A stretch of DNA of 24,000 nt from an uncultured archaeon (GTDB lineage Archaea; Asgardarchaeota; Lokiarchaeia; Sigyniarchaeales; SOKP01): NCBI GenBank assembly GCA_964525635.1, contig CAZGJX010000001.1:22546-46545 (forward strand). Reading direction: 5' to 3'. This document shows positions 1 through 23,692 of the stretch, one piece after another. Position 1 is the first letter of the stretch; each line of letters starts with the position of its first letter. The notes below the pieces were generated by a model, which did no database searches, was not told the DNA's origin, and was given only the letters and a program-made list of their open reading frames with translations. Both the position numbers and the translations under genes were made by a program.

Positions 1-416
1 CTGAACTTATCTCCTTTTTTATTAATTGAAGCATCAGAAATAATTAAATCAAGTTTATCGTTAAAATACGAAGAGATTTGCTCTTCTATTTCTTTTTCAA
101 TTATATTTCCTTTTAAAATCTTAATATTATTAATCGGAGTTATATGTTTGATATCAATACCCATGATCTTATAATCATCTCTATGATAATATTTATCATT
201 ATATATTACTAAATTCTTTTCAGCGATTTCTTTAGCTACCTGTAACCAAGATCCTGGTGCGCTTCCTATATCTAATATATAAAAAGCTCTTTTAAAAATG
301 TTATATCTATGTTGAATATCCAATAACTTATAAGCAGAACGTGCCCTATATCCTTCTTTTTTAGCTTTAAGGTAATGAGGATCTTGTTTATGTTTAAATG
401 ATTTATTACTCGGCAT
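1..416 (-). CDS. rlmE: 23S rRNA 2'-O-ribose methyltransferase RlmE/FtsJ family (N-terminal part; the 3' end runs off the window)
   Basis: Hand translation from the ATG at 416 (minus) gives MPSNKSFKHKQDPHYLKAKKEGYRARSAYKLLDIQHRYNIFKRAFYILDIGSAPGSWLQVAKE... This contains the FtsJ/RlmE hallmarks (R)SRAAYKL-like 'RARSAYKLLDI' and the SAM-binding 'DIGSAPGSW' (compare DLGAAPGGW). It is open to the window edge and is absent from the ORF track only because it is partial. Confidence 0.7.
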   Translation of the reverse strand, partial: MPSNKSFKHKQDPHYLKAKKEGYRARSAYKLLDIQHRYNIFKRAFYILDIGSAPGSWLQVAKEIAEKNLVIYNDKYYHRDDYKIMGIDIKHITPINNIKILKGNIIEKEIEEQISSYFNDKLDLIISDASINKKGDKF

Positions 417-1876: not shown

Positions 1877-2578
1877 CTAATTCATAAATCCAAAATCAGT
1901 CATATTTAATTTAAATTCTAGTACCTTATTTTTTGTAGAATGAGTTAGAATAAATTTCCTTTCTTTTAATTTTTGTGTTCTCTCAATTTTTAAAGCATTG
2001 GAAATCCAATAATTCATAACATTACCTCCACTTTGAATCTCTTTTGTTGATCCAATCTCAGTCTTTCTACTAACTTCATTTATTATTAATATTTCTACTT
2101 TGTATTTTTTATTTAAATATAATAAATTAGCTAATATCTGATTTAATTGATAATTAAGAGTAATAACATCTTTTTTTCGGTTTATATTTAAATTTAATCT
2201 ATATAAATCAGTTATAGAATCGATTATAATCAAACTAATTGATTTTTCTTCTATTAAATTCTTTAAAAATAAAAATTCTAGATTAAAGCTAATTTTATAT
2301 AGATTATCAAAATCTTTCAAATATATAAGAATAAAATTCTTTTTTTTTTGGGTGATTACATTATGTTGAGGCTTAAAAAGATTATTTATCTTATCTATAG
2401 GAAGGTTTGGTTTTGTATAAAAAAAAAGAACATTTTTATCATTTTTTATTGTATTTAAAGCTATTTGAAGAGCGTAAGTTGTTTTTCCAACTCCAAAATT
2501 ACCCCATATTGAAAAGATCCCATCAATAGGAGAATCTTTATCAAAAATAGTATTTAATTTAATTGTTGGAAAAATCAT
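1877..2578 (-). CDS. RecA-superfamily ATPase, RadB/KaiC-like
   Basis: 233 aa. It has a Walker A 'GNFGVGKTTYALQIA' and a Walker B-like 'LIIIDSITDLYR'. Size and layout match archaeal RadB (about 220-240 aa). Confidence 0.55.
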   Translation of the reverse strand: MIFPTIKLNTIFDKDSPIDGIFSIWGNFGVGKTTYALQIALNTIKNDKNVLFFYTKPNLPIDKINNLFKPQHNVITQKKKNFILIYLKDFDNLYKISFNLEFLFLKNLIEEKSISLIIIDSITDLYRLNLNINRKKDVITLNYQLNQILANLLYLNKKYKVEILIINEVSRKTEIGSTKEIQSGGNVMNYWISNALKIERTQKLKERKFILTHSTKNKVLEFKLNMTDFGFMN

Positions 2579-2624
2579 TTTTTTTATCTAGTTATTAATT
2601 TTATGATTAATTTATTATTATGAA

Positions 2625-2855
2625 TTGAATAAAGTTAAAATTTTTGTTCTGACAAATAATCCTAAATTCTTTTATAAAATAAATAAAGAGCTTAATGATC
2701 TAGGATATAAATTCAATATTATTGAATTTAAAGATATAATTCCTAATATTTCTTCTATTATTCTTACAACCTTGGAGGAATCTAAAAAGATCATAAATTT
2801 TAATAAAAATAAAGTGCTAATATTCCCTTATAACGAAAAAGAGGACTTTGATTAA
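2625..2855 (+). CDS. Hypothetical small protein (TTG start); possibly the N-terminal part of the next gene
   Basis: A 76-aa ORF with a TTG start and no recognisable motif. It overlaps the next ORF by 8 nt in a different frame. Confidence 0.3.
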   Translation: MNKVKIFVLTNNPKFFYKINKELNDLGYKFNIIEFKDIIPNISSIILTTLEESKKIINFNKNKVLIFPYNEKEDFD

Positions 2856-3483
2856 AATTTTTCAATGTGGGGCAAAGGATTATTCTAACTTGTTATTTTC
2901 AATTGATCCTGGACAAACTATTGGATTAGCTGTTTTCCTTGATGGATTTCTTTTTTATTCTAATTCTTTCTATGATAAGAAAAAACTCATTTCAGATATT
3001 AAAAAAACTATAAAGAATTTATCAGAAGATAATTTAACTCAATTAATTATATCCTTTAAATTTGGTAGAGGTGTTTTTTCTATAACTGTTGATCTAATCT
3101 CAGAGATCTATAAAATTTATAATGAGAAAGAGAAATTTAAAATTTATTTAATTAATGAATCAAAATCTTCAAAAATTAAACTTCATAAAATTTCTGATAA
3201 ATTATCTAAACATGAAGCATCTGCTGTAATACTTGCTCTTAGACCAGGGATTGAGGTAAATAAAGATAATTATTCAAAATTTATCGAATTAACTAAATCA
3301 GACAAAAATATACGAAAAAAAGTAGATGAAGAACTGACAATTATATCTTTTCTAAATCAAAATATTGACTTACTTAAATCAGTATTCCTTGATATAGTCG
3401 ATTGTAAAATACCTATTGATAAAGTTCTTGAATTTATTGAACAGAAAAAATTGATGAATAATATACCCTATTCAAAGAATTAA
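2848..3483 (+). CDS. Predicted RNase H-fold nuclease (RuvC/YqgF(RuvX)-like)
   Basis: 211 aa with a TTG start. 'FSIDPGQTIGLAVF' resembles the first acidic motif of RuvC/YqgF (GxDxGxxxxGxAv). 'LINESKSSK' resembles the YqgF DERxTT segment. 'HEASAVILAL' resembles the C-terminal D/E-x-x-AA-x-IL motif. This rests on motifs only. Confidence 0.35.
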   Translation: MIKIFQCGAKDYSNLLFSIDPGQTIGLAVFLDGFLFYSNSFYDKKKLISDIKKTIKNLSEDNLTQLIISFKFGRGVFSITVDLISEIYKIYNEKEKFKIYLINESKSSKIKLHKISDKLSKHEASAVILALRPGIEVNKDNYSKFIELTKSDKNIRKKVDEELTIISFLNQNIDLLKSVFLDIVDCKIPIDKVLEFIEQKKLMNNIPYSKN

Positions 3484-3520: not shown

Positions 3521-3739
3521 CTAAGAATCTTTATGTTCATTAGAGTGAGAATCTTTACGTTTTTTTAATGCAATATCTACTGCTTTTTGGAGGTATTCCT
3601 CCCTTTTATTATTAAAATCAGGATCTGCCATATTAGTTATCATATTTTTTACCATAATATTTGCAATTCTTTCAGCATCATTTAGAGGTTCTTTCATTTC
3701 ATTATTTTCTTTTTTTTTTTCTTTCCCAGTATCATCCAT
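3521..3739 (-). CDS. Hypothetical small Lys/Glu-rich protein
   Basis: A 72-aa ORF at the distal end of the minus-strand gene string. No recognisable domain. Confidence 0.35.
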   Translation of the reverse strand: MDDTGKEKKKENNEMKEPLNDAERIANIMVKNMITNMADPDFNNKREEYLQKAVDIALKKRKDSHSNEHKDS

Positions 3740-3811
3740 ATACTTTTATCTCAACTTATTTTAAACAATTTATCAATAACTATTCTCTCGAAATATTATA
3801 CATTTAAAAGA

Positions 3812-9291: not shown

Positions 9292-10653
9292 CTATTTTTT
9301 TTTTCTATTTTTTTCTATTTGCTTCCAAAAATAGATAATTGTTATTTTATACCAAATTATTAAAATGGGTATAATTAATAAAAGAGAAATCAGAATATTA
9401 TAGGGTATTTTAATAATTTTTAGATCTAATTCGGTAAGAGGTAATTCCATTATATAAATATCAATAAAAAATAATAATAAAATCATCACTATAAATAAAG
9501 CAATGATATGAAGTGATATATCTATAATCCTAGGAAATAGATAAAAGAGAAGAATATAAACAATTGCAATCAAAATAACTATAACTATAATTATTGGTAG
9601 ATCTAAAGTGTTCATTGTCCAGCGTATTAGTAATGTCGTTATTATTGATAATAACCCACAAACAAAAGAGAGAATATAGAATTTTTTTACTAATTCAGGT
9701 TCTGTTAATGGCCCTTTAGATAGGATTAATCTTGGCATTGTTAATAAAGCATTTTTTTCTTCAGAAGCTTTTATCCTATCATCCTTAAGAAGGATTATAT
9801 CATCTCTTGATTTATGAATCTCTTCACTTTCAAAAAAACCCCTTACAGAGGAGATATAATAAAAGCTATTAAAAACATGGATTAAAAGAGCAACAAATGC
9901 TATTATTTCTAATCCACCAAATAGGGCAATACATGCAATCATTGCACCCATAATAAGTGTTCCAATATCACCAGGAAATATCTTTGCAGGGTATTTATTG
10001 AAGAGGAAAAATGATATAATCACAGAAAAAGAAAGAACTGAAAATATTACGCCTGAATATGAATTTATTATTATACTACAAATGATCAAAAATCCAATAA
10101 CAATTAAGCATGTTCCCGATCCTTCACCATTATATCCCTCTAACATGTTTACTGTGTTAGAAAAAATCGTAACTATTAAGGGAATTAGAATAGGATATAA
10201 AATGTTTAATCTTAATTCTCCAATAATAGGAAAAATTGGATTTTTTATAGTGATAAAATCAAAGAAGTTGGCAAAAAAAATCAATATTCCCGTCAATAAA
10301 GTTAAAGCGATTTTATATCTTGATCTTAATCTAATTCTATCATCAATATATCCAATGCATCCAGATAGAAAAATTGTCAAGGTTACAATCAGAATTTCAT
10401 TGATAATTTCAGGAAAAAATATCAGTAAAAATAATGCTCCTCCTAAAAAACCAAAAAGCATTCCTAATCCTCCAGATTCAGCTATTTGTGGTTTTGAATT
10501 TTTATGAATATCAAGTCCTATATAACCTCTCTTTTTCATGAATTTAATAATAAAAGGCATTAGAAAATAGGTTAGTGCAAAACCTATGATAAATATAATT
10601 ATTAAAAAAACTATCTTTAATAGATTGAATTCATTAACTGAGAAACATATCAT
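9292..10653 (-). CDS. Glycosyltransferase family 4 polyprenyl-phosphate HexNAc-1-phosphate transferase (AglH/Alg7/WecA/MraY superfamily)
   Basis: 453 aa and polytopic. It has 'GYIDDRIRL', 'NTVNMLEGYNGEGSG' (N..N..DG.dGL-type) and 'FPGDIGTLIMG' (GD.GS-type) motifs, plus about 140 aa of additional C-terminal TM helices. Confidence 0.7.
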   Translation of the reverse strand: MICFSVNEFNLLKIVFLIIIFIIGFALTYFLMPFIIKFMKKRGYIGLDIHKNSKPQIAESGGLGMLFGFLGGALFLLIFFPEIINEILIVTLTIFLSGCIGYIDDRIRLRSRYKIALTLLTGILIFFANFFDFITIKNPIFPIIGELRLNILYPILIPLIVTIFSNTVNMLEGYNGEGSGTCLIVIGFLIICSIIINSYSGVIFSVLSFSVIISFFLFNKYPAKIFPGDIGTLIMGAMIACIALFGGLEIIAFVALLIHVFNSFYYISSVRGFFESEEIHKSRDDIILLKDDRIKASEEKNALLTMPRLILSKGPLTEPELVKKFYILSFVCGLLSIITTLLIRWTMNTLDLPIIIVIVILIAIVYILLFYLFPRIIDISLHIIALFIVMILLLFFIDIYIMELPLTELDLKIIKIPYNILISLLLIIPILIIWYKITIIYFWKQIEKNRKKK

Positions 10654-12289: not shown

Positions 12290-12916
12290 ATGAGTTCAGA
12301 ACAATTATTAAAAATTGGAGATGTTGCCACTCTCTTAGGGGTTACCACCCAAACTTTAAGAAATTGGGCGAATAACGGATATATGGATGCCATCATTGGA
12401 AAAGGAGGACATAGAAGATTTCGAAGGAGTGAAATCGAACGACTTATGGAACTGAAAGAACCAGAAGGTAACGTTAAGAAATGTCTTCTATATTGTAGAG
12501 TTTCTACATCCATTCAAAAAGATAATTTAGAGCGCCAACTAGAAAGACTTACATCCTTTGCTTTATCGAATGGCTTTATAATTGAAGGAATTTATAAAGA
12601 CATTGCCAGTGGAATGAATTTTAAAAGACGAGGGTTATTGAAGCTTTTAGATTATTGTCAAAAGCATCGTATAAACACAGTTGTTATAGAATATAAGGAC
12701 AGATTAGCAAGATTTGGAGTAGATTTGCTAAGAGAAATTTTAAATTCCTTTGGCACGGAATTAATGATTGTAAATGCTACAGATTCAGATTATAAGCAAG
12801 AAATAATTGATGATATGATTGCTATTATCATTCATTTTAGCAATCAACTGTACGGAAAGCGAAAGGGAAAGAATAAAGTAAATATAATAAAAAAAGAACT
12901 TTTAAAAGGGATATAA
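12290..12916 (+). CDS. tnpA: IS607-type transposase TnpA (MerR-like HTH + serine recombinase/resolvase catalytic domain)
   Basis: 208 aa. The HTH is 'LLKIGDVATLLGVTTQTLRNWANNG'. The catalytic-serine motif is 'LLYCRVSTSIQKDNLERQLERL'. Also present are 'DIASGMNFKRRGLLKLL', 'VVIEYKDRLARFG' and 'IIHFSNQLYGKRKGK'. These are all canonical for IS607 TnpA. Confidence 0.9.
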   Translation: MSSEQLLKIGDVATLLGVTTQTLRNWANNGYMDAIIGKGGHRRFRRSEIERLMELKEPEGNVKKCLLYCRVSTSIQKDNLERQLERLTSFALSNGFIIEGIYKDIASGMNFKRRGLLKLLDYCQKHRINTVVIEYKDRLARFGVDLLREILNSFGTELMIVNATDSDYKQEIIDDMIAIIIHFSNQLYGKRKGKNKVNIIKKELLKGI

Positions 12917-12961
12917 AAAACGATTTTTTATTTAAATAAATACACATATAGAGAGTAGTAG

Positions 12962-14497
12962 ATGATACAAACTATTAAATTTCGACTGCATCCGACACTC
13001 TCACAAGAGCACCAATTACATGAAATCTTTACTATCTATAATAGAATCAAGCGAAAAGGTTATAATCTATTTTATGAAAAGAGAGATTTATTCTTTTCAG
13101 AAAATGCCGAGGTCAGAAAAGAGTTAGATAAAGAAATACATCAGAAACTAATGAAGGTATGTCATAATAATCCTTATGTAAATAGCATTCGTATTGATTG
13201 TAAGAATAAGTTAACTCAACAACAAACATGGTTGGAGAAGCGAGAAACTTATCTTACTCATCAGATAACGACTATTTTGGAGAAGATTGAACAAATAAAA
13301 GAAATGGATAAAAAAGATAGACGATTAAAAGGGCTCTATTCTCGTCTATCCTCTGTCCAACTTAAATTAGCTACTCTTCACTTCAAATCTATTATATTTG
13401 GAACCAAACGATTGTTTCGAGAGCGAATTTTAAGGAAGCTTAGCAGAGAGGAATTTAGAATCAGGAGAGATTCTTCTTTTTGTTGCGTGGGAAAAAAGCA
13501 AGGTATTAATTTGAATTTAAAAGTCCTTCCCAATGCAACCCTACGGATTCGTACTTTTTCTAAGGAAAAAGAGAAAAAATGGTTAATTTTACCCTTTACG
13601 GTCAATTACACGCAAGGGAAATGGTTTAACGAAATCCTTAGATTAGAATTATATCAAGTAGAAATAATTAGGCGGTTCTATAAGGGAAATATTCGATATT
13701 TTGCTCATGTATCCTATGAAACTCCTGAGATGGAACCGATATATGGATTTGAACATGGGGCAGTCGGGCTTGACATGAATTATAACTTTGTTTCCCTTAG
13801 TAATATAGATAACCATGGAAATTTTAAGAGTTTTCATGGAATTCGTTTTAAGAATTTGCACTCATATCGTAAATACAAGCGTTTGGATTATATTAGCTAT
13901 AAAATGGATAAAGTGGTAAATTATTGCATTAATAAGAAGAAAGGACTAGTTGTTGAAGACCTTTCTTTTGAACATGAATTTTCTTATGGGAAAAAACGCA
14001 ATAGAAAATTAAGCAATTTTAAACTATCAGCATTAGAATTATTAGAACGAAAATGCTTTAAAAAATGGATTATGATAAAGAGAGTACATCCAGCATATAC
14101 CTCGTTAATTGGTAAATATAAATATTCACGATTATATAACTTATCTACTCATGTGTTAGCAAGTTATGTAATAGCTCGAAAAGGTTTAAGGATTAAGGAA
14201 GAGATTCCACCCAATTACAAGTGGGTGCTTGCACAAGTCGGGGACGTTATAAAGCCCCGTTTGAAACCAAGCAGTCCCTACCGCGATTGGGCTAAACTTC
14301 ACGACTTTTTCAAGTATAGCGGGATAACTTCCTTCAAGACTTCCGAAGTAATGATTAAAACATTACTAATGAAGCATGTCCTGAACTCGGTGACGAGCGA
14401 ACCGCCTGATAACCTTAAGGCGGGTCTTTCCCCCACAGGAAAGATTGATAATTGGAATAAATTTTGGAATTTTACAGAAATTACCAATTTTTTATAA
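12962..14497 (+). CDS. tnpB: TnpB-family (IS605 OrfB / RuvC-like) protein, atypical: no zinc finger, and His at the expected third RuvC Asp
   Basis: 511 aa. The N-terminus 'IQTIKFRLHPTLSQEHQL...IYNRIKRKGYN' is of the TnpB WED/REC type. RuvC-I is 'GAVGLDMN' (Asp271, nt 13772-13774). RuvC-II is 'GLVVEDLSF' (Glu332, nt 13955-13957). 'VHPAYTSLIG' corresponds to the TnpB 'p.yTSq.C' segment. No CxxC...CxxC follows, and 'STHVLASYVIARKG' sits where D-x-NAA-x-NI-A is expected (His397, nt 14150-14152). Confidence 0.8.
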   Translation: MIQTIKFRLHPTLSQEHQLHEIFTIYNRIKRKGYNLFYEKRDLFFSENAEVRKELDKEIHQKLMKVCHNNPYVNSIRIDCKNKLTQQQTWLEKRETYLTHQITTILEKIEQIKEMDKKDRRLKGLYSRLSSVQLKLATLHFKSIIFGTKRLFRERILRKLSREEFRIRRDSSFCCVGKKQGINLNLKVLPNATLRIRTFSKEKEKKWLILPFTVNYTQGKWFNEILRLELYQVEIIRRFYKGNIRYFAHVSYETPEMEPIYGFEHGAVGLDMNYNFVSLSNIDNHGNFKSFHGIRFKNLHSYRKYKRLDYISYKMDKVVNYCINKKKGLVVEDLSFEHEFSYGKKRNRKLSNFKLSALELLERKCFKKWIMIKRVHPAYTSLIGKYKYSRLYNLSTHVLASYVIARKGLRIKEEIPPNYKWVLAQVGDVIKPRLKPSSPYRDWAKLHDFFKYSGITSFKTSEVMIKTLLMKHVLNSVTSEPPDNLKAGLSPTGKIDNWNKFWNFTEITNFL

Positions 14498-14500: not shown

Positions 14501-14581
14501 ATTTGAAGGTTAATTATAAAATCTATCTTTTAATATTATCTAGTTTTTTTTTATGAAAAATTAATAATTAAAAGAGAAAAT

Positions 14582-14653
14582 AGCCCGGCACGGACTCGAA
14601 CCGTGGTCACAGGGTTCAAAGCCCCGTATGCTTGGCCACTACACCACCGGGCT
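14582..14653 (-). tRNA. tRNA-Gln (anticodon UUG)
   Basis: The minus strand reads AGCCCGG-UG-GUGU-AGUGGCCAA-GCAU-A-CGGGG-CUUUGAA-CCCUG-UGAC-CACGG-UUCGAGU-CCGUG-CCGGGCU (72 nt). The 7-bp acceptor is perfect, with the A1:U72 pair typical of archaeal tRNA-Gln. It has a D loop with GG, a T loop UUCGAGU, and an anticodon loop C-U-UUG-A-A. There is no intron and no encoded CCA. It is followed on its strand by the discriminator A and a T-rich tract (ATTTTCTCTTTT). Confidence 0.9.
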
Positions 14654-14708
14654 AATATAGATATATTAGAATAATCTAAAGTTTTATTTACTATTAGTAT
14701 TAAATAGT

Positions 14709-15332
14709 TTATAGGTTAAAAGGTTTAAGATTTCTATTTAAAATTTCTTTATCTAAAAATTCTTGATTTTCTTTGAGGAATTGGATATCTTTCTCTTTTT
14801 CTCTATATTCGTCAGGTAACATCCTAGGAATTGAATCTTTAATTGGATACCACCTATTACAGTTATTACATAAAATCAATCCTGTCTTAATCTCTATCTC
14901 AATTTTTATTCTATTTAGAAAATTCAATTCTGGTAATATTTTTTCAATTTCATTTAAATTTGAATAATCTCTAAATTGAAGTATCTTTTCTTTTATTTTT
15001 GTTTTTACCATATCAATACATTCCTTACTTAGATTAAAAGAAGAGTTATCACTAATAAAATCAAATTCTTCTACACTAGAGATTATAAATTTTATATAAT
15101 CATCAATTCTGATTTTCTCTATGACAATATTATCTCTAATATAAATTTGATCATCCTCTTTCGTCCATTCAGGTATTTTTTCTTTTATATGATATTTAAT
15201 ATCCGTTTTGATATATTTATCTAAAAGATTTTTAAAAAAATCCTCATCTGATTCATAAGTAAAAATAAATAAATTTAAAGGATAATGTTTACAAATCGGA
15301 CATGCTAAAATATCAAAAAGCCAAGGCTTCAT
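14709..15332 (-). CDS. Trm112-like zinc-knuckle protein with a large (~125 aa) internal insertion
   Basis: 207 aa. The N-terminal 'LFDILACPICKHYPL' and the distal 'LILCNNCNRWYPIKDSIPRMLPDE' are the two halves of the Trm112/UPF0434 fold (lL.iLvCP.Ck..L ... L.C..C...YPI.dGIP.mL.dE). Four Cys are available for Zn. Confidence 0.6.
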   Translation of the reverse strand: MKPWLFDILACPICKHYPLNLFIFTYESDEDFFKNLLDKYIKTDIKYHIKEKIPEWTKEDDQIYIRDNIVIEKIRIDDYIKFIISSVEEFDFISDNSSFNLSKECIDMVKTKIKEKILQFRDYSNLNEIEKILPELNFLNRIKIEIEIKTGLILCNNCNRWYPIKDSIPRMLPDEYREKEKDIQFLKENQEFLDKEILNRNLKPFNL

Positions 15333-15378: not shown

Positions 15379-17241
15379 TTATAATAAATAATTTCTCAAT
15401 TGTTGGATATATCTGTCAATAGTTCTATCTATTTTTCTTCTTCGTTTCAAGAAATCTCCAGATAATTTTTCAAAAGCAACCCTTGAAGGTAATTTTCCCT
15501 TTTTATATCTTGATTCTAATAATTTCAATCCATCTTCAACAGTCTGCCGTTCAGCTTCTAAGACTTCTAATTTTTGAACTATATTTTCAAAAGTCTCTCC
15601 AATTTCAATTAAAATTTTCTTGAATGGTTTTATTTCATCTTCGATAACTTTAATTTTTGACTCATTTTTATCAACAAGATTTCTATATTTCTTTTTCGGT
15701 AATTTTCTCCGTATTAAGTCTTCTTCTGCTTTTCTTATTTCAAGAACTAATGCATTCTTCTCCTCATACAATGAACAAAATTCACGGATCTCATTTTGTG
15801 GGAGCATTTCTTTCTTAATTATAGGTAATACCCCTCTTTCTTTTTTCTTCTTTACATATACAATATATACTGCGGATATAAGTGTTATTGTAAGCATAAA
15901 AATAATAGGTCTTAACAGCAAATCAAATAAATCTATTGTATAGGTGATTAAGATTGGATGTTTATCTGAGGATACTACATCTATATCTTCATAAATTAGT
16001 ATAGTCTTTCCTTGAGATTCATATATCCCCTCTGGAGTAGCAGAAATAGAATCGATACTATAACATCCATCAATTATAATTTTAGTTGTTTGTTCTCGTA
16101 TTATAAAATCAGCATAAGTTGGATAAATGTTCATTTTAATTGATTGTTGGAACCAATTGATAGATAGATAATCTCTTAAATTCAAGGTATATTTTAAAAT
16201 AAAATTTCCTATATCATATTGGTCAAGTACTACTCTGTTCTTTGCAAAACTGACATTAACTGATTTGATACTATCCTGCTTAGCTATTTTATTTCCTTTA
16301 AGCTGACCTAAATCATCATATATTTCTATATTATTAGCACTTAGAGGAACAAATAAAGGGAATCCCGGTAATGGAATATAATCTAAATTTATTATAGAAA
16401 AAGCTTCTTTTACAATTAAAGTCCCCCATGGTGAGATTGAAATTTCTCGATTTAAACTTATTACTTCTACTATAAGTGTATATTTATCTATAAATTTGAA
16501 TTTGGATATTGCCTCACTACCTAGATTTTCTGCAAAAGGAGCTAAGTAAGATTTTGAATATGTTAATATGTTTTCTGATGAGTTGGATGCCCAATCAGAA
16601 ATTGTTACGTGTGTTCCTGACAATAATAATTTATATTCAGCAGTTAATGCTCCTTCAGCTCTATAGGGTAATGATGGAAAAATATATGATTTGTAATATA
16701 CATTAAATTTTATTCCTTTTTCTTGTTGCGCATAGCGCGCTACTTCATAATTACAAAGAGCTATAAAAGTTTGCCAAAATCTAACTGTTTTAGTCTGATA
16801 TGGTTGTAAAGGTGAACTAAAATAAACCGAAATCATTTCAAACTCATGTCCTTTTGAATTCGATGATATTAATCCCTTTCTCTCACAATATAGGTTATTT
16901 TTTAATTCACCCATAGCTTTGAAATTAACTAGCTTTTGAGTGATATTTAATGGGATTCCAATAAGAATTGAATTGATAGGATTATTATTTAAGTTTTTTA
17001 TATCTAACCTATCTTGTATAAAAACTAATCTCCCATCAGATATGTTTGCTACTCTGTGTATATGTGTTATAACAATATTTTCTGCTCCATCTAGACCTAT
17101 TGAACTTTTAGGAATATTACTGGGTTCTTCATTAATATTATTAACTCCATTTAAATTTGGTATCAAGGCACTAACTATAAAGATCATAAATAAGATTGTT
17201 AAGTATGAAATTAATTTTCTTTTTCTCAACATAATATCCAT
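15379..17241 (-). CDS. Ribophorin I (OST1)-like oligosaccharyltransferase subunit homologue
   Basis: 620 aa with the topology of eukaryotic ribophorin I. An N-terminal signal/anchor (LISYLTILFMIFIVSALIP) precedes a ~420-aa extracytoplasmic domain. A single TM (LLLRPIIFMLTITLISAVYIVYV-KKKKE) follows at about 445-465, then a ~150-aa charged coiled-coil tail. 'NREISISPWGTLIVKEAFSIINL' (nt 16423-16449 encode REISISPWG) parallels the conserved ribophorin I block '[21 protein letters not shown]'. Confidence 0.55.
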   Translation of the reverse strand: MDIMLRKRKLISYLTILFMIFIVSALIPNLNGVNNINEEPSNIPKSSIGLDGAENIVITHIHRVANISDGRLVFIQDRLDIKNLNNNPINSILIGIPLNITQKLVNFKAMGELKNNLYCERKGLISSNSKGHEFEMISVYFSSPLQPYQTKTVRFWQTFIALCNYEVARYAQQEKGIKFNVYYKSYIFPSLPYRAEGALTAEYKLLLSGTHVTISDWASNSSENILTYSKSYLAPFAENLGSEAISKFKFIDKYTLIVEVISLNREISISPWGTLIVKEAFSIINLDYIPLPGFPLFVPLSANNIEIYDDLGQLKGNKIAKQDSIKSVNVSFAKNRVVLDQYDIGNFILKYTLNLRDYLSINWFQQSIKMNIYPTYADFIIREQTTKIIIDGCYSIDSISATPEGIYESQGKTILIYEDIDVVSSDKHPILITYTIDLFDLLLRPIIFMLTITLISAVYIVYVKKKKERGVLPIIKKEMLPQNEIREFCSLYEEKNALVLEIRKAEEDLIRRKLPKKKYRNLVDKNESKIKVIEDEIKPFKKILIEIGETFENIVQKLEVLEAERQTVEDGLKLLESRYKKGKLPSRVAFEKLSGDFLKRRRKIDRTIDRYIQQLRNYLL

Positions 17242-20239: not shown

Positions 20240-20611
20240 TTGAGTGAAAACATCAGTGAACTTACCGATTTGTTAAGAAACCTTGAAGCAGTTAATTCTG
20301 ATATTCAGGGTAGTGCTATCGTCTCAGTCCAAGGACTACCAATATGTTCTGCTCTATCTAGAGATGTGAACGATGGAATTGTTAGTGCGATGAGTGCTGC
20401 TATTCTTAGTGTTTCAGAACGAGCAGTTCAGGAACTCGCAAGAGGTATTTTACAGAGAATTTTAATTGAAGGAATAGATGGTATCATTATTCTTTCAAGA
20501 GCAGGAGAAAATGCAATATTATGTACATTAGCAAAACCAGATGCTAGTTTAGGTATGGTTTTTATACATATAACGAGTGTTTCAAAAAAAATAGCTACAT
20601 TATTAGATTAA
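20240..20611 (+). CDS. Roadblock/LC7 (MglB-like) domain protein
   Basis: 123 aa with a TTG start. 'GSAIVSVQGLPICSA...DGIVSAMSAAILSVSERAVQEL..G...RILIEGIDGIIILSRAGENAILCTLA' follows the Roadblock/LC7 alpha-beta-alpha pattern (ga.lv..dGl.ia......d.e..aa..a.......g.l....ie...g.l.l...g....L.vl). Confidence 0.75.
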   Translation: MSENISELTDLLRNLEAVNSDIQGSAIVSVQGLPICSALSRDVNDGIVSAMSAAILSVSERAVQELARGILQRILIEGIDGIIILSRAGENAILCTLAKPDASLGMVFIHITSVSKKIATLLD

Positions 20612-20730: not shown

Positions 20731-22197
20731 TTACTCTCTTAGAGCTTGAATATTGTTAAAAATATTATCAAATCTATTTTTTATAGAACCTACTAATCCT
20801 TCTTCTTCTGAAATTACTGAATTTATAGCAGCTTTTAAACCATAATGTCCTTCTGATATTGATACTCTAATTGGTAAAGTCAAAAATTCATTGATTAGCA
20901 TAGCGATTTCTTGGAATAATTGTATTATTTTCGGAAAATTTTCTTGTGTTTTATTTATAATTGACTGTTCAGGTGATAATAATCCATTTTCTCTTTCTTG
21001 ATTCAATTCTTCCCAAATATTTTCTTTAAGGGTAGAAAAATTAATTCCTAAATCTTCTAAAGCAATTTGAGCTCCTTCAAAAAGAAAATTTATATCATCT
21101 CTACCAGAATAATTTTTGATATTTTCAACCATTTCATTTGGTGCTAATCCTTCTAAGAATTTAATTAATAGATTATGATAATCTTTTACTACATCTAAAG
21201 GCACAAATAATAATACCATCTCTTTAAGTTGTTTGAAAAAATATCCTGCCACTTTGGCGATTGTTTCATTTTTTAGTAATTTCTCAATAAACCTTCCATT
21301 TTCATTAAGTAAGTGTATAAGAAGAAATCCAATAATTCTTATCATATCTTCTTCATAATTTCTAAAATAGTCAAAAAAATGCTCTGGTTCCATATTTAAT
21401 TTATCTCTAATAATATCAGCAATTCTTTTTTTGATATTTTCTAATGGTTCATCAATTAGTTCTTCTAATTTATCGAGAGAAAAAGATTCTTGTAATTGAT
21501 CTAGAAGATCTACTTTATTTTTTTGAATTACTTCCTCTTCTATATCTGATTCAAGGATTACTTTAGATAATGTTTTATCTTTTAATTTTAATTGAGTCAT
21601 TTTTTTCCATTCATTATAATCATAGATTTTACATAACAACTGAAGGCAATTATCACCTTTTCCCATGCATTTTTGTTCTACAATTTTTATCCTATAATTA
21701 TTTTTTTTTACTTTTAAGATAAAATTTGCAACACCTTGAAGCATTCCACATAATCCACAAGCCATTCCTTCTGTTTTATTACCCAATTTCGATATATTAA
21801 ATGTATCTTCTGGTGATGTACCATAACTTGCACATATTGGACAGTGTTTAATCTTTAAAAGATAACTATTATAAATGGAATTTTCTTCTGAAATTTCTTC
21901 ATAATCTAGCTCTTCTAATTCTTTACCAAATACAACTACCCATAATAATTCAAAATAGTCTACAACTTTATCTGGACTTCCAGGCATGAATTTAAATATT
22001 GCAGAATGACGTTCACATGACTCCATTGCTGCTTGTTTCCCAACCTCCCTCATTACCAATAGACTTAATTCTTCATCTTTAGTAATTTCATTGATTTCTT
22101 TGAGAATTTCTCTATAAATTAATGAATAGAATAAAGAACTAGTATTCCGACCAAATGCTTTAGATATTTTTTTCATTAACCATTGAACGATTCCCAT
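20731..22197 (-). CDS. V4R (4-vinyl reductase / Bet3-TRAPP-like) domain protein with a long helical C-terminal region
   Basis: 488 aa. 'LLKIKHCPICASY...GMACGLCGMLQGVANFILK...YRIKIVEQKCMGKGDNCLQLLCKI' matches the V4R pattern (C..C......C....G...G.......v.E.kC.a.Gd..C.f.i). About 290 aa of acidic helical sequence of unknown function follow. Confidence 0.6.
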   Translation of the reverse strand: MGIVQWLMKKISKAFGRNTSSLFYSLIYREILKEINEITKDEELSLLVMREVGKQAAMESCERHSAIFKFMPGSPDKVVDYFELLWVVVFGKELEELDYEEISEENSIYNSYLLKIKHCPICASYGTSPEDTFNISKLGNKTEGMACGLCGMLQGVANFILKVKKNNYRIKIVEQKCMGKGDNCLQLLCKIYDYNEWKKMTQLKLKDKTLSKVILESDIEEEVIQKNKVDLLDQLQESFSLDKLEELIDEPLENIKKRIADIIRDKLNMEPEHFFDYFRNYEEDMIRIIGFLLIHLLNENGRFIEKLLKNETIAKVAGYFFKQLKEMVLLFVPLDVVKDYHNLLIKFLEGLAPNEMVENIKNYSGRDDINFLFEGAQIALEDLGINFSTLKENIWEELNQERENGLLSPEQSIINKTQENFPKIIQLFQEIAMLINEFLTLPIRVSISEGHYGLKAAINSVISEEEGLVGSIKNRFDNIFNNIQALRE

Positions 22198-22709
22198 TAC
22201 ATTCCACCTTCAATTTTATATTTAAATATTTGAACGCAATATTTATTTCCAAATGTTTTTGATTCTTGAATTTTTAATGGTTCAATTAATAGGATTGTTT
22301 TATTTTTTGAATTAATATTAATAATATTTATAAATTCAGATATTAATCCTAAGAGAATTTCACATCCAGCAATTTGAATATCATCATATTCATATTTACA
22401 TAATGCACAGTTGGTATCATTAACAATGATTAATTGTTCATTTTCATTCAATTCCACTGAAATCGAGCTTTTTAAAACTTTTTTATATATTGTAGCAATC
22501 ACATCCCTAATATTATTTAAATCAACTAGTTCAGTTGGACTCCAATATTTAATATAGGTTTTAGAAATATTCTTACCAATTCTTTGCATTCTCTCTTTTT
22601 TATCATCAATATTATTTTTTGCCATAAAACGAGCCAGATGATAAATTGCATTTCTTAATTGATTTATTGCAGCATCAGCATGTAATAATTCATTTCTTGA
22701 GTAATTCAT
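22197..22709 (-). CDS. V4R-domain protein (small)
   Basis: 170 aa. 'LIIVNDTNCALCKYEYDDIQIAGCEILLGLISEFIN...EPLKIQESKTFGNKYCVQIFKYKI' shows V4R-like Cys/Gly spacing. It shares one nucleotide (22197) with the downstream V4R gene, which implies co-transcription. Confidence 0.5.
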   Translation of the reverse strand: MNYSRNELLHADAAINQLRNAIYHLARFMAKNNIDDKKERMQRIGKNISKTYIKYWSPTELVDLNNIRDVIATIYKKVLKSSISVELNENEQLIIVNDTNCALCKYEYDDIQIAGCEILLGLISEFINIININSKNKTILLIEPLKIQESKTFGNKYCVQIFKYKIEGGM

Positions 22710-22854
22710 TATTTTTACTAAATATGTTTAATGTTTATGATATTATGTGAAAAAATAGAAGATATTTAAAATTTTTAATTAGATTAAAAATATTATTTGT
22801 ATCTATTTCAAGATATTAATTTCTAAATTATTATTAAATAATAATTATTATCAT

Positions 22855-22883
22855 ATGATTTTATCTAATTAAATTAAAATTAT
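22855..22883. repeat. Hairpin related to the trx insert (ATGATTTTA-11 nt-TAAAATTAT)
   Basis: The plus strand ATGATTTTATCTAATTAAATTAAAATTAT compares with the insert's plus strand ATGATTTATCTAATTATTAAATCAT. They share ATGATTT(T)ATCTAATTA and a TAAA(A)T-AT arm. It lies 33-61 nt downstream of the trx stop codon. Confidence 0.4.
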
Positions 22884-22915
22884 CAAGAAAAATAGTATAT
22901 ATTATTATAATATAG

Positions 22916-23301
22916 TTACATTTGTTCTATAATTGCTCTCAACATATCTTCTCCACATGCTCCCACCATTTTTCCATTTTGTATATGATTTTGACCATTT
23001 ACTTCTATATTTTTTTCTATTAATTCCCCATCTTTGAAAAACAACAGGGTTGGGATTGCGTGTATATTAAACATATTACCCAATGGTCTATTTTGATCTA
23101 AATCAACTTGTATTATATTTATTAATCCTTCATCTCTTAGCTTATGTAAAATTGGTGTGATGAACTTTCATGATGATTTATCTAATTATTAAATCATTTG
23201 CATGGTCCGCACCAAACAGTATAAATATCTATGATAAGCTTTCCTTTTTTCATTTCCTCTGTAACTGGAATGTTCACATCTTTTAATTTATCGATATTCA
23301 T
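22916..23301 (-). CDS. trxA: Thioredoxin, interrupted by a 32-nt BHB-type insert (exon 1 23199-23301, exon 2 22916-23166)
   Basis: Hand translation gives exon 1 as MNIDKLKDVNIPVTEEMKKGKLIIDIYTVWCGPC + A. Exon 2 is AG + FITPILHKLRDEGLINIIQVDLDQNRPLGNMFNIHAIPTLLFFKDGELIEKNIEVNGQNHIQNGKMVGACGEDMLRAIIEQM*. 103 + 251 nt = 354 nt = 117 codons + stop. The joined protein has the WCGPCK active site, the K-F-I-T-P-I-L continuation and the cis-Pro 'IPT'. The unspliced reading stops at TGA 23194-23196, and exon 2 is in another frame. Confidence 0.8.
23167..23198 (-). other. Candidate bulge-helix-bulge (hBHBh') intron in the thioredoxin pre-mRNA
   Basis: The minus-strand RNA reads 5'-GGAC CAUG [CA|A] AUGAUUUA auaauuaga UAAAUCAU CAUG [AA|A] GUUC-3'. 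The outer helix is GGAC/GUUC (4 bp, one G.U). The central helix is CAUG/CAUG (4 bp). Two 3-nt bulges lie on opposite strands, each 3' of its central-helix strand. The inner helix is 8 bp with a 9-nt loop. Cleavage after the 2nd nt of each bulge (the canonical rule) removes exactly 32 nt and restores the frame. Confidence 0.65.
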
Positions 23302-23483
23302 TTGTTCTCATCTTATATTAAATATTTTATTTAAATATCTTTTTTAAGATTTTCTCTTATTAAGTTTTTAAGATATATTTACATTAAGTAAATTGTAATA
23401 TTTATTTTTTATATTTTAAATATAAATCAAAAAGATATTAATACAATAAAATTTATGTTAAATTCTAGCTAAATTGTTTAAAT

Positions 23484-23501
23484 TGATTTAAGAATAAATC
23501 A
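23484..23501. repeat. Hairpin sharing the stem of the trx insert (TGATTTA-agaa-TAAATCA)
   Basis: A 7-bp perfect inverted repeat identical to the core of the insert's inner helix. The following ATTT also matches (TAAATCATTT in both). It lies in the trx/hdrC-like divergent intergenic region. Confidence 0.35.
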
Positions 23502-23692
23502 TTTAATTTCTATCAATTAAATTGATATTTCTTAAAATATTTTAATTGGTGATTAAACAGTATATTTAAGTTAATATCTATATTCTATTTTTATTTCTTA
23601 AATAAGGAAATAATTAGAATAAAATTTAAATTCTATGAAGAGAAATTTAAAATAATCTATAGTAGTTAAATAAATTAATAATATATTTTGTT

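Follow-up and report, generated by a model that had tools for sequence, protein, structure and literature searches.

A thioredoxin gene that is broken by 32 nucleotides (nt) directly behind its CGPC active site raises the question of whether the gene is dead or whether the interrupting segment is removed from the transcript before translation. The gene is located on the minus strand of a 24,000-nt stretch of DNA from an uncultured archaeon of the Lokiarchaeia (GenBank assembly GCA_964525635.1, contig CAZGJX010000001.1, positions 22,546 to 46,545). This whole stretch is referred to as the window, and all positions are counted from its first letter. The gene extends over positions 22916-23301 (386 nt) and is interrupted at 23167-23198. 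Comparison with orthologous genes makes it very probable that the interrupting segment represents an intron of the bulge-helix-bulge (BHB) type, carried in the pre-mRNA of a working thioredoxin gene of the Lokiarchaeia type of Asgard archaea.

The first exon (23199-23301, 103 nt) extends from the ATG at 23301 to ...TGG TGC GGA CCA TGC A and encodes Met1 through Cys34 together with base 1 of the codon for Lys35. The predicted BHB intron, AAUGAUUUAAUAAUUAGAUAAAUCAUCAUGAA, is 32 nt in length (23167-23198) and was assigned from its fold, from the restoration of the open reading frame (ORF), and from the comparison with other alleles. The second exon (22916-23166, 251 nt) opens with AG TTC ATC ACA CCA and is closed by a TAA stop codon at 22916-22918. 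In the unspliced sequence the frame of exon 1 reads MNIDKL...YTVWCGPCK and is terminated by a TGA just within the insert. The thioredoxin sequence continues 32 nt further on in a different frame as (K)FITPILHKLRDEG...AIPTLLFFKDG...EQM, with the stop codon reached at 22916. Deletion of 23167-23198 provides a 354-nt ORF of 117 codons that reads WCGPCKFITPIL. The 117-residue product matches the Pfam Thioredoxin family (PF00085) with an E-value of 3e-18 and a score of 66 bits over residues 18-97, and the match is continuous across the junction. At the predicted junction, CCAUGCA^AGUUC (the caret marks the joined or cut bond here and below), the Lys35 codon is obtained as AAG and the protein reads WCGPC-K-FITPIL. 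When the identical gene is present in other assemblies, the gene callers return only fragments of 35 amino acids (aa) from exon 1 and 52 aa from exon 2. Since the unspliced mRNA yields only a 35-residue peptide that ends just past CGPC, splicing would be required for the formation of active protein.

The fold of the region is described in the 5' to 3' direction of the RNA. The segments are, in order, GGAC (23208-23205), CAUG (23204-23201), the bulge CAA (23200-23198), AUGAUUUA (23197-23190), AUAAUUAGA (23189-23181), UAAAUCAU (23180-23173), CAUG (23172-23169), the bulge AAA (23168-23166), and GUUC (23165-23162). The outer helix (h) is formed by GGAC of exon 1 and GUUC of exon 2, the latter containing base 3 of the Lys35 codon together with the Phe36 codon, and consists of 4 base pairs (bp), one of which is G·U. 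The central helix (H) contains 4 bp between the CAUG of the Pro33 and Cys34 codons in exon 1 and the CAUG within the intron. The inner hairpin (h', 23173-23197) has an 8-bp stem formed by AUGAUUUA and UAAAUCAU and a loop of 9 nt. The predicted cuts are at CA^A in the 5' bulge, between 23199 and 23198, and at AA^A in the 3' bulge, between 23167 and 23166. The minimum free energy (MFE) and centroid folds calculated for 23150-23220 (71 nt) are both exactly the strict hBHBh' form, the definition of which is said to come from Marck and Grosjean in 2003. In the allele of the window, two bulges of 3 nt lie on opposite strands at either end of a 4-bp central helix, and both h and h' are present. The first-pass annotation of this DNA, made from the sequence alone, had proposed these positions and this geometry, which proved correct to the base, and its application of a cut after the second bulge nucleotide does give the 354-nt thioredoxin ORF. 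The outer helix is lengthened by a further exon-exon helix of 6 bp, in which UUGGUG (23210-23215, Trp30 and Cys31 codons) is paired with CACCAA (23152-23157, codon 38, the Pro39 codon, and the beginning of the Ile40 codon). An exon-exon helix of the same type appears in the folds of other insert-bearing alleles.

In the proposed mechanism, GGAC-CAUG of exon 1 would pair with GUUC of exon 2 and with CAUG at the 3' end of the intron, which would expose the two 3-nt bulges on opposite strands at a distance of 4 bp. The archaeal splicing endonuclease EndA would cut behind the second nucleotide of each bulge. An RtcB-type ligase would join ...CCAUGCA to AGUUCAUC..., thereby rebuilding the Lys35 codon and the reading frame; in DNA letters the spliced junction would read CCATGCA^AGTTCATC. 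The excised 32-mer would probably be circularised. Exon ligation by RtcB-type enzymes and circularisation of the intron are established for the splicing of archaeal tRNA. The cleavage of BHB motifs between bulge residues 2 and 3 has been described, with cbf5 as the precedent for a protein-coding gene (PMC2738675). Asgard genomes, including one from Lokiarchaeota, encode an (alpha-beta)2 EndA with an L1 loop that has been linked to a broad substrate range (PMC5829648).

Inserts in Orthologous Thioredoxin Genes

The spliced protein has hundreds of uninterrupted full-length homologues in Lokiarchaeia, most of them 114-117 aa in length and 60-74% identical. It is colinear with these orthologues, many of which have the same length of 117 aa, and the nearest thioredoxin relatives are labelled Promethearchaeota or Lokiarchaeia. 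The segment W30-C-G-P-C-K35 is invariant in an alignment of 29 sequences, and the listed sequences conform to WCGPCK[FY][ILV]xP[IV]L, most of them with WCGPCKF[IV]. Because WCGPCK is invariant in the orthologues, the predicted junction restores the family sequence exactly, with no residue gained or lost.

Orthologous loci were collected from genomes, using one genome per species, and 80 loci were kept. The gene is uninterrupted in 76 of these loci. The other four carry an insert of 30 nt, which is located in the Lys35 codon in one locus (L025) and before Trp30 in three (L015, L065, and L078). The insert of L025 interrupts the Lys35 codon in the same way as that of the window and has a different interior (CUGUU...AACAG). 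The central helix CAUG/CAUG and the two 3-nt bulges are common to both, the junction of L025 is UGUA^AGUUU, and its MFE fold is a BHB. Contigs from metagenomes were searched with an unbiased DNA pattern whose only demands were WCGPC, then a spacing of 14-44 nt, then K-F-[IV]-x-P-[IV]-L. Nine loci (L081-L089) were obtained, all of them thioredoxin orthologues with an insert of 29-34 nt in the Lys35 codon. Beyond the window there are thus ten loci with inserts in this codon (L025 and L081-L089), which represent eight distinct sequences of 29-34 nt with unrelated interiors. The comparison proposed in the first-pass annotation has produced both of the outcomes it had named, intronless alleles and conserved BHB inserts in the same codon. 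The nine distinct Lys35-site sequences, with that of the window included, fall into three groups by their central helices: CAUG/CAUG, GUGC/GCAU (L087), and CUUG/AAAG. A cut after bulge nucleotide 2 rebuilds Cys-Lys-Phe in all of the Lys35-site alleles.

Two further observations were made on these genes. The usual stop codon after ...AKM is missing from L085 and the frame continues for 26 more codons, which is either a natural C-terminal extension or the early decay of this copy. Locus L031, from one Lokiarchaeia metagenome-assembled genome, contains tandem thioredoxin paralogues at 3001-3342 and 3545-3790.

The pairing of the Lys35-site inserts was analysed for covariation using eight sequences that were aligned on the ORF-restoring junctions and not on structure. 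The count included 13 pairs of the outer, central, and inner helices. L087 was omitted from the count, and a MAFFT alignment that included L087 displaced this sequence by one base because its BHB register is offset from the coding register. Pairing is possible in 89.4% of the cells, compared with 32-43% when the partners are slid by 1-3 columns. Changes on both sides are found in 6 of the 13 pairs, namely all five of the inner pairs counted and the second central pair. The latter changes between A-U and U-A among the allele groups and tracks the Pro33 codon. The observed covariation score was reached by none of 500 shuffles.

The dN/dS ratio among the intron-bearing alleles is 0.04-0.10 at dS values from 0.6 to saturation, and the spliced ORFs of 12 distinct insert-bearing alleles are intact, with no added frameshifts or stop codons. 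The low dN/dS at high dS indicates that the insert-bearing alleles are not pseudogenes. Synonymous positions in the exons also differ between the two types of allele. Codon 38 has A as its third base in all nine intron-bearing alleles and in 8 of 47 intronless alleles (Fisher p = 3e-6); Lys35 is encoded by AAG in 8/9 and 14/47, respectively (p = 0.0015); and the third base of Gly32 is a purine in 9/9 and 24/47, respectively (p = 0.007). These p-values ignore relatedness, and the search pattern left the positions in question free. On a neighbour-joining tree calculated from about 97 residues, which is rough and not robust, the intron-bearing alleles occupy approximately five distinct positions. 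If only five independent lineages are counted, the bias at codon 38 has a p-value of approximately 1e-4. The silent exon positions are selected for pairing in the outer helices, and such selection is difficult to account for if the RNA structure has no role.

In the window and in all loci of the Lys35 type, the codons for Trp-Cys (UGGUGY) are the reverse complement of those for residue 38 and Pro39 (xCACCA), and the coding sequence of the active site is thus able to pair with itself from exon to exon. The complementary codon choice CACCA is nearly limited to the intron-bearing alleles and is found in 3 of the 47 intronless ones. The pre-existing complementarity of the exons at the Lys35 site (UGGUGC for Trp-Cys with GCACCA for Ala-Pro) may constitute a ready-made outer helix that predisposes this site to the fixation of introns.

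BHB-like inserts are also present at two other sites in the same gene. A second insert, of 35 nt, is located behind Glu65 in L081 (approximately 1060-1095) and L083 and at the equivalent position of L086 and L088. Its sequence, GGUG AA^A AUUAAAG...CUUUAAU CACU AA^A, provides a 4-bp central helix with two AAA bulges, and its removal by the same cleavage rule restores G-E-K-F. L081, L083, L086, and L088 each contain two inserts within 117 codons. Between codon 29 and Trp30, inserts of 30 nt are found in L015 (3001-3381), L065 (3001-3381), and L078 (1142-1519). The register, the pairing, and the fit to the cleavage rule were worked out by hand for this site, and the ORF-restoring removal was done for all three. 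In the Trp30-site inserts the 5' bulge and the inner stem are well formed and the outer helix is weak, which corresponds to a relaxed motif, and the central helix consists of three Watson-Crick pairs only, which covary (CCG/CGG and CUG/CAG). A broader proposal would combine three independent insertion sites, up to two introns per copy, a patchy distribution among close relatives, and a predisposed Lys35 site. Taken as one claim, this proposal is tentative and is rather doubtful in its entirety.

Evidence against an Intron and Rival Explanations

Several results weigh against the assignment of the insert as an intron. The fold of the insert region has a modest z-score of -1.58. The strict hBHBh' motif is common in the window: a scanner that accepts at least 4+4+4 pairs (at least 12), allows G·U, and permits inserts of 14-120 nt counted it 65 times on one strand and 63 times on the other, compared with about 44 per strand in shuffled sequences. 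The central helix of the CUUG/AAAG group contains a G·A mismatch, which makes the motif a relaxed BHB, and MFE folding of L081, L082, L084, and L085 from this group provided an in-register BHB in none of the four. In L087 the BHB register is 1 nt away from the coding register and there is no in-register outer helix. None of the spliced proteins from eight sequences was present in an exact look-up against a collection of 15 billion proteins, the purpose of which was to find an RNA-derived or intronless identical allele. The 24-kb window contains no gene for either EndA or RtcB. The cutting and joining of the RNA, the enzymes responsible, and a regulatory role, if there is one, are inferred. A screen of 95 related loci (529 kb) for a BHB with ORF rescue gave 69 candidates, four of which are the thioredoxin Lys35 intron (L025, L090, L091, and L092). 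The 13 further candidates that were inspected in this screen included no other convincing split gene. About half of these 13 correspond to the spacer that separates the two conserved genes lying downstream of the thioredoxin gene, or to junctions at the 3' end of the thioredoxin gene, several of them with a visible start codon, and the remaining ones join stretches without signs of coding. The phenomenon of mRNA introns may be confined to the thioredoxin gene.

Since BHB geometry is frequent by chance in DNA of about 25% G+C, as in the window, the case for an intron rests on the comparative data, and the motif alone is not used as evidence. The chance rate for a strict motif at one fixed position and length is approximately 2e-5, obtained from 44 hits among about 2.6 million combinations of position and length. 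What exceeds chance is the conjunction of the BHB with frame restoration and not the BHB alone. The first-pass annotation had considered it unlikely that a full BHB and a restored frame would occur together by chance; the statement holds for the two combined, and the BHB taken alone is common. For 19 strict-BHB candidates in the window, removal leaves at least 25 codons of open frame to either side. Among the strict hits, that in the thioredoxin gene alone combines a long inner stem with a convincing rescue of the coding frame. Apart from the thioredoxin insert, removal lengthens a frame in just three of the 19 candidates. One of them, 10497-10574 (plus strand), is antisense to a real gene, and the other two, 2576-2647 (plus strand) and 280-341 (minus strand), lie in intergenic or edge regions. 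All three were judged to be chance occurrences. Most of the cbf5 introns are likewise relaxed (PMC2738675), and the heteromeric EndA with an L1 loop, an enzyme type reported from Asgard genomes, is reported to accept such motifs (PMC5829648).

If the insert were instead a palindromic or hairpin element, or the product of replication slippage, it would have killed the thioredoxin gene and the BHB-like fold would be incidental. This explanation agrees with the frequent occurrence of BHB geometry by chance in AT-rich DNA, with the near-perfect hairpin of the insert and the CATG on both of its flanks, and with the two short fragments returned by the gene callers. A dead gene is nevertheless very unlikely, given the strong purifying selection on the exons despite nearly saturated synonymous sites, the 12 distinct insert-bearing alleles without further frameshifts or stops, the covarying pairs, and the synonymous exon sites that are tuned to the pairing. 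A second copy of the 32-nt insert was not found in the 24-kb window with up to 3 mismatches, and the interiors of the same-codon inserts are unrelated, unlike those of a repeat family. The properties of a repeated palindromic element, of the type of a miniature inverted-repeat transposable element, were not seen in a partial test that covered 24 kb of the genome. No match was obtained when 22700-23600 was scanned against Rfam by E-value. The preference for an intron over a gene-killing palindrome, expressed in the first-pass annotation, is thus upheld by the covariation, the dN/dS values, the synonymous bias, and the inserts in the same codon. That annotation had also named an assembly artefact as a concern. 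The assembly is of the metagenome type and AT-rich hairpins can be error-prone. All 386 nt, including the insert, are however identical in three independent assemblies (JGI 3300031624, JGI 3300031257, and Logan SRR9706179) made from different samples with different pipelines, and other projects have yielded no fewer than 13 further contigs with homologous inserts. An artefact of sequencing or assembly, or an error peculiar to one strain, can thus be set aside almost completely. A group I or group II intron or an intein is ruled out by the size of the inserts (29-35 nt) and by their stop codons.

The complete protein could also be made from the unspliced mRNA if the ribosome were to take off at a Lys codon AAA before the UGA, hop over the insert, and land downstream. 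In gene 60 of phage T4 the ribosome hops a gap of 50 nt. The allele of the window is superficially similar in having AAA, an immediate UGA, a hairpin, and a suitably placed downstream AAG, and it is the only allele with this arrangement. L025 and the whole CUUG/AAAG group have no Lys codon before the insert (UGU AAC, UGU ACA, UGU AGC, and UGU AUC), and in these alleles Lys35 is formed only as A plus AG across the predicted cuts, whereas a hop cannot create a codon. The covariation, moreover, follows the BHB register and not a take-off and landing arrangement, and translational bypass is accordingly most improbable. A further explanation accepts the RNA structure and assigns another outcome to it, either cleavage by EndA as a decay switch without productive splicing or conditional splicing that gates the synthesis of thioredoxin. 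The first form resembles mRNA decay initiated by TSEN in yeast and the second resembles HAC1/XBP1. The location of the intron within the active-site codons, which leaves the unspliced RNA non-functional, and the three intron sites in one small redox gene are compatible with either form, and the eukaryotic TSEN is known to cut some mRNAs without ligation (PMC10485636). The purifying selection on both exons and the exact restoration of the frame point to a ligated product, however, and the absence of an intron from 76 of the 80 genome loci means that no regulatory role is required. Decay or conditional splicing is thus considered improbable, and productive splicing of a BHB intron is preferred.

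Gene Neighborhood of the Thioredoxin Locus

The proteins encoded in the window are typical of Asgard archaea and include Ribophorin I, Roadblock/LC7, Trm112, Trm1, and archaeal-type glycosyltransferases. A cluster of eukaryote-like genes contains a Ribophorin I homologue (15379-17241, minus strand), a Roadblock/LC7 protein (20240-20611, plus strand), and a Trm112-like protein (14709-15332, minus strand). In an identical contig (L093), a gene for Sec61-beta is called between MazG and Ribophorin I.

Directly downstream of the thioredoxin gene, at 20731-22709 on the minus strand, are two conserved genes of unassigned function that encode proteins of 170 and 488 aa without a match in Pfam or NCBIfam. 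The same gene pair occurs in many Lokiarchaeia loci (L002, L006, L019, L023, L024, L027, L043, and L090). In the window the two genes share an ATGA overlap, and in other loci a spacer of 40-100 nt lies between them. At 12290-14497 (plus strand), adjoining a tRNA-Gln gene (14580-14654, minus strand), an IS607-family serine transposase (NCBIfam E-value of 4e-62) is followed by an ORF of 511 aa. The latter has a TnpB-related match below threshold (27 bits with a cut-off of 32) and no match in Pfam. This ORF may be an Asgard example of a divergent TnpB-like protein.

Comparison with Known Systems

No report of a BHB intron within a protein-coding gene of Asgard archaea or within any thioredoxin was found in the full-text literature, a search outside of which most subscription journals fall, and the statement in the first-pass annotation that none was known is in agreement with this result. 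A review from 2023 lists cbf5 and HVO_1309 as the archaeal mRNAs that are spliced in this manner and states that more will probably be found (PMC10485636). An Asgard genome paper from 2024 describes abundant introns in tRNA only. Introns confirmed to be spliced by the endonuclease are exceedingly scarce in archaeal protein genes, and the thioredoxin intron would extend their occurrence to a further gene and a further phylum. This phylum, Asgard, is the one in which the origin of eukaryotic gene structure is the most pointed question. If the assignment is correct, the closest archaeal relatives of eukaryotes would have a protein-only route for the creation and removal of mRNA introns, in a system that is tractable for watching intron gain. 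The comparative series covers three sites and no fewer than 12 distinct alleles, together with intronless sisters, and would serve as a natural system for the study of gain, loss, and sequence requirements. Split genes of this type are lost in annotation, and the Asgard proteomes would be systematically missing such genes.

The intron of the cbf5 pre-mRNA has reportedly been studied by Watanabe in 2002, Yoshinari in 2006, and Yokobori in 2009. The cbf5 intron of Crenarchaeota (Aeropyrum, Sulfolobus, and Desulfurococcales) is likewise short and is located in a protein gene, in the codon for a catalytic residue (PMC2738675). It is similar to the thioredoxin insert in its BHB or BHB-like fold with a cut between bulge residues 2 and 3, in its variable interior with conserved exon pairing, and in its patchy distribution among lineages, which implies both gain and loss (PMC2738675). 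The hosts would also be alike in having a heteromeric (alpha-beta)2 EndA, the type reported for Asgard genomes. The two differ in the gene, which encodes thioredoxin and not a pseudouridine synthase, and in the lineage, which is Lokiarchaeia of the Asgard archaea and not Thermoproteota; splicing of the thioredoxin transcript is deduced from sequence. The allele of the window is a strict hBHBh', whereas most of the cbf5 introns are relaxed, and the thioredoxin orthologues have three sites with up to two inserts per copy.

The BHB introns of archaeal tRNA and rRNA have the same geometry, with a 4-bp helix between opposite 3-nt bulges and with outer and inner helices. The length of the thioredoxin insert is within the size range of archaeal tRNA introns, 11-175 nt (PMC2738675). 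In contrast to these introns, the host RNA of the thioredoxin insert is an mRNA, the exons of the motif are also coding and are thus doubly constrained, and there is no tRNA body to aid recognition. HVO_1309 of Haloferax volcanii is described as an archaeal mRNA that is cut at a BHB by EndA, with a spliced product detected by RNA-seq (PMC7714728; PMC10485636). The host in that case belongs to the euryarchaea and has an EndA that is homodimeric. The thioredoxin BHB is situated within the ORF, at the active-site codons, and the frame is restored when it is removed; the position of the BHB in HVO_1309 lies outside this comparison.

In a bolder version of the proposal, conditional splicing would gate the synthesis of thioredoxin in the manner of HAC1/XBP1. 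That system is generally understood to share with the thioredoxin gene a very short non-spliceosomal intron (about 26 nt in XBP1), a protein endonuclease that acts at paired stem-loops, RtcB-type ligation in metazoa, and a shift of the downstream reading frame upon removal. The endonuclease in HAC1/XBP1 is understood to be IRE1, which recognises another motif, and regulation by stress is established there, whereas for thioredoxin it is purely speculative. In comparison with all of these systems, the mechanism proposed for the thioredoxin intron is of a known kind, and its occurrence in this gene, in this lineage, and at multiple sites is, as far as could be determined, new.

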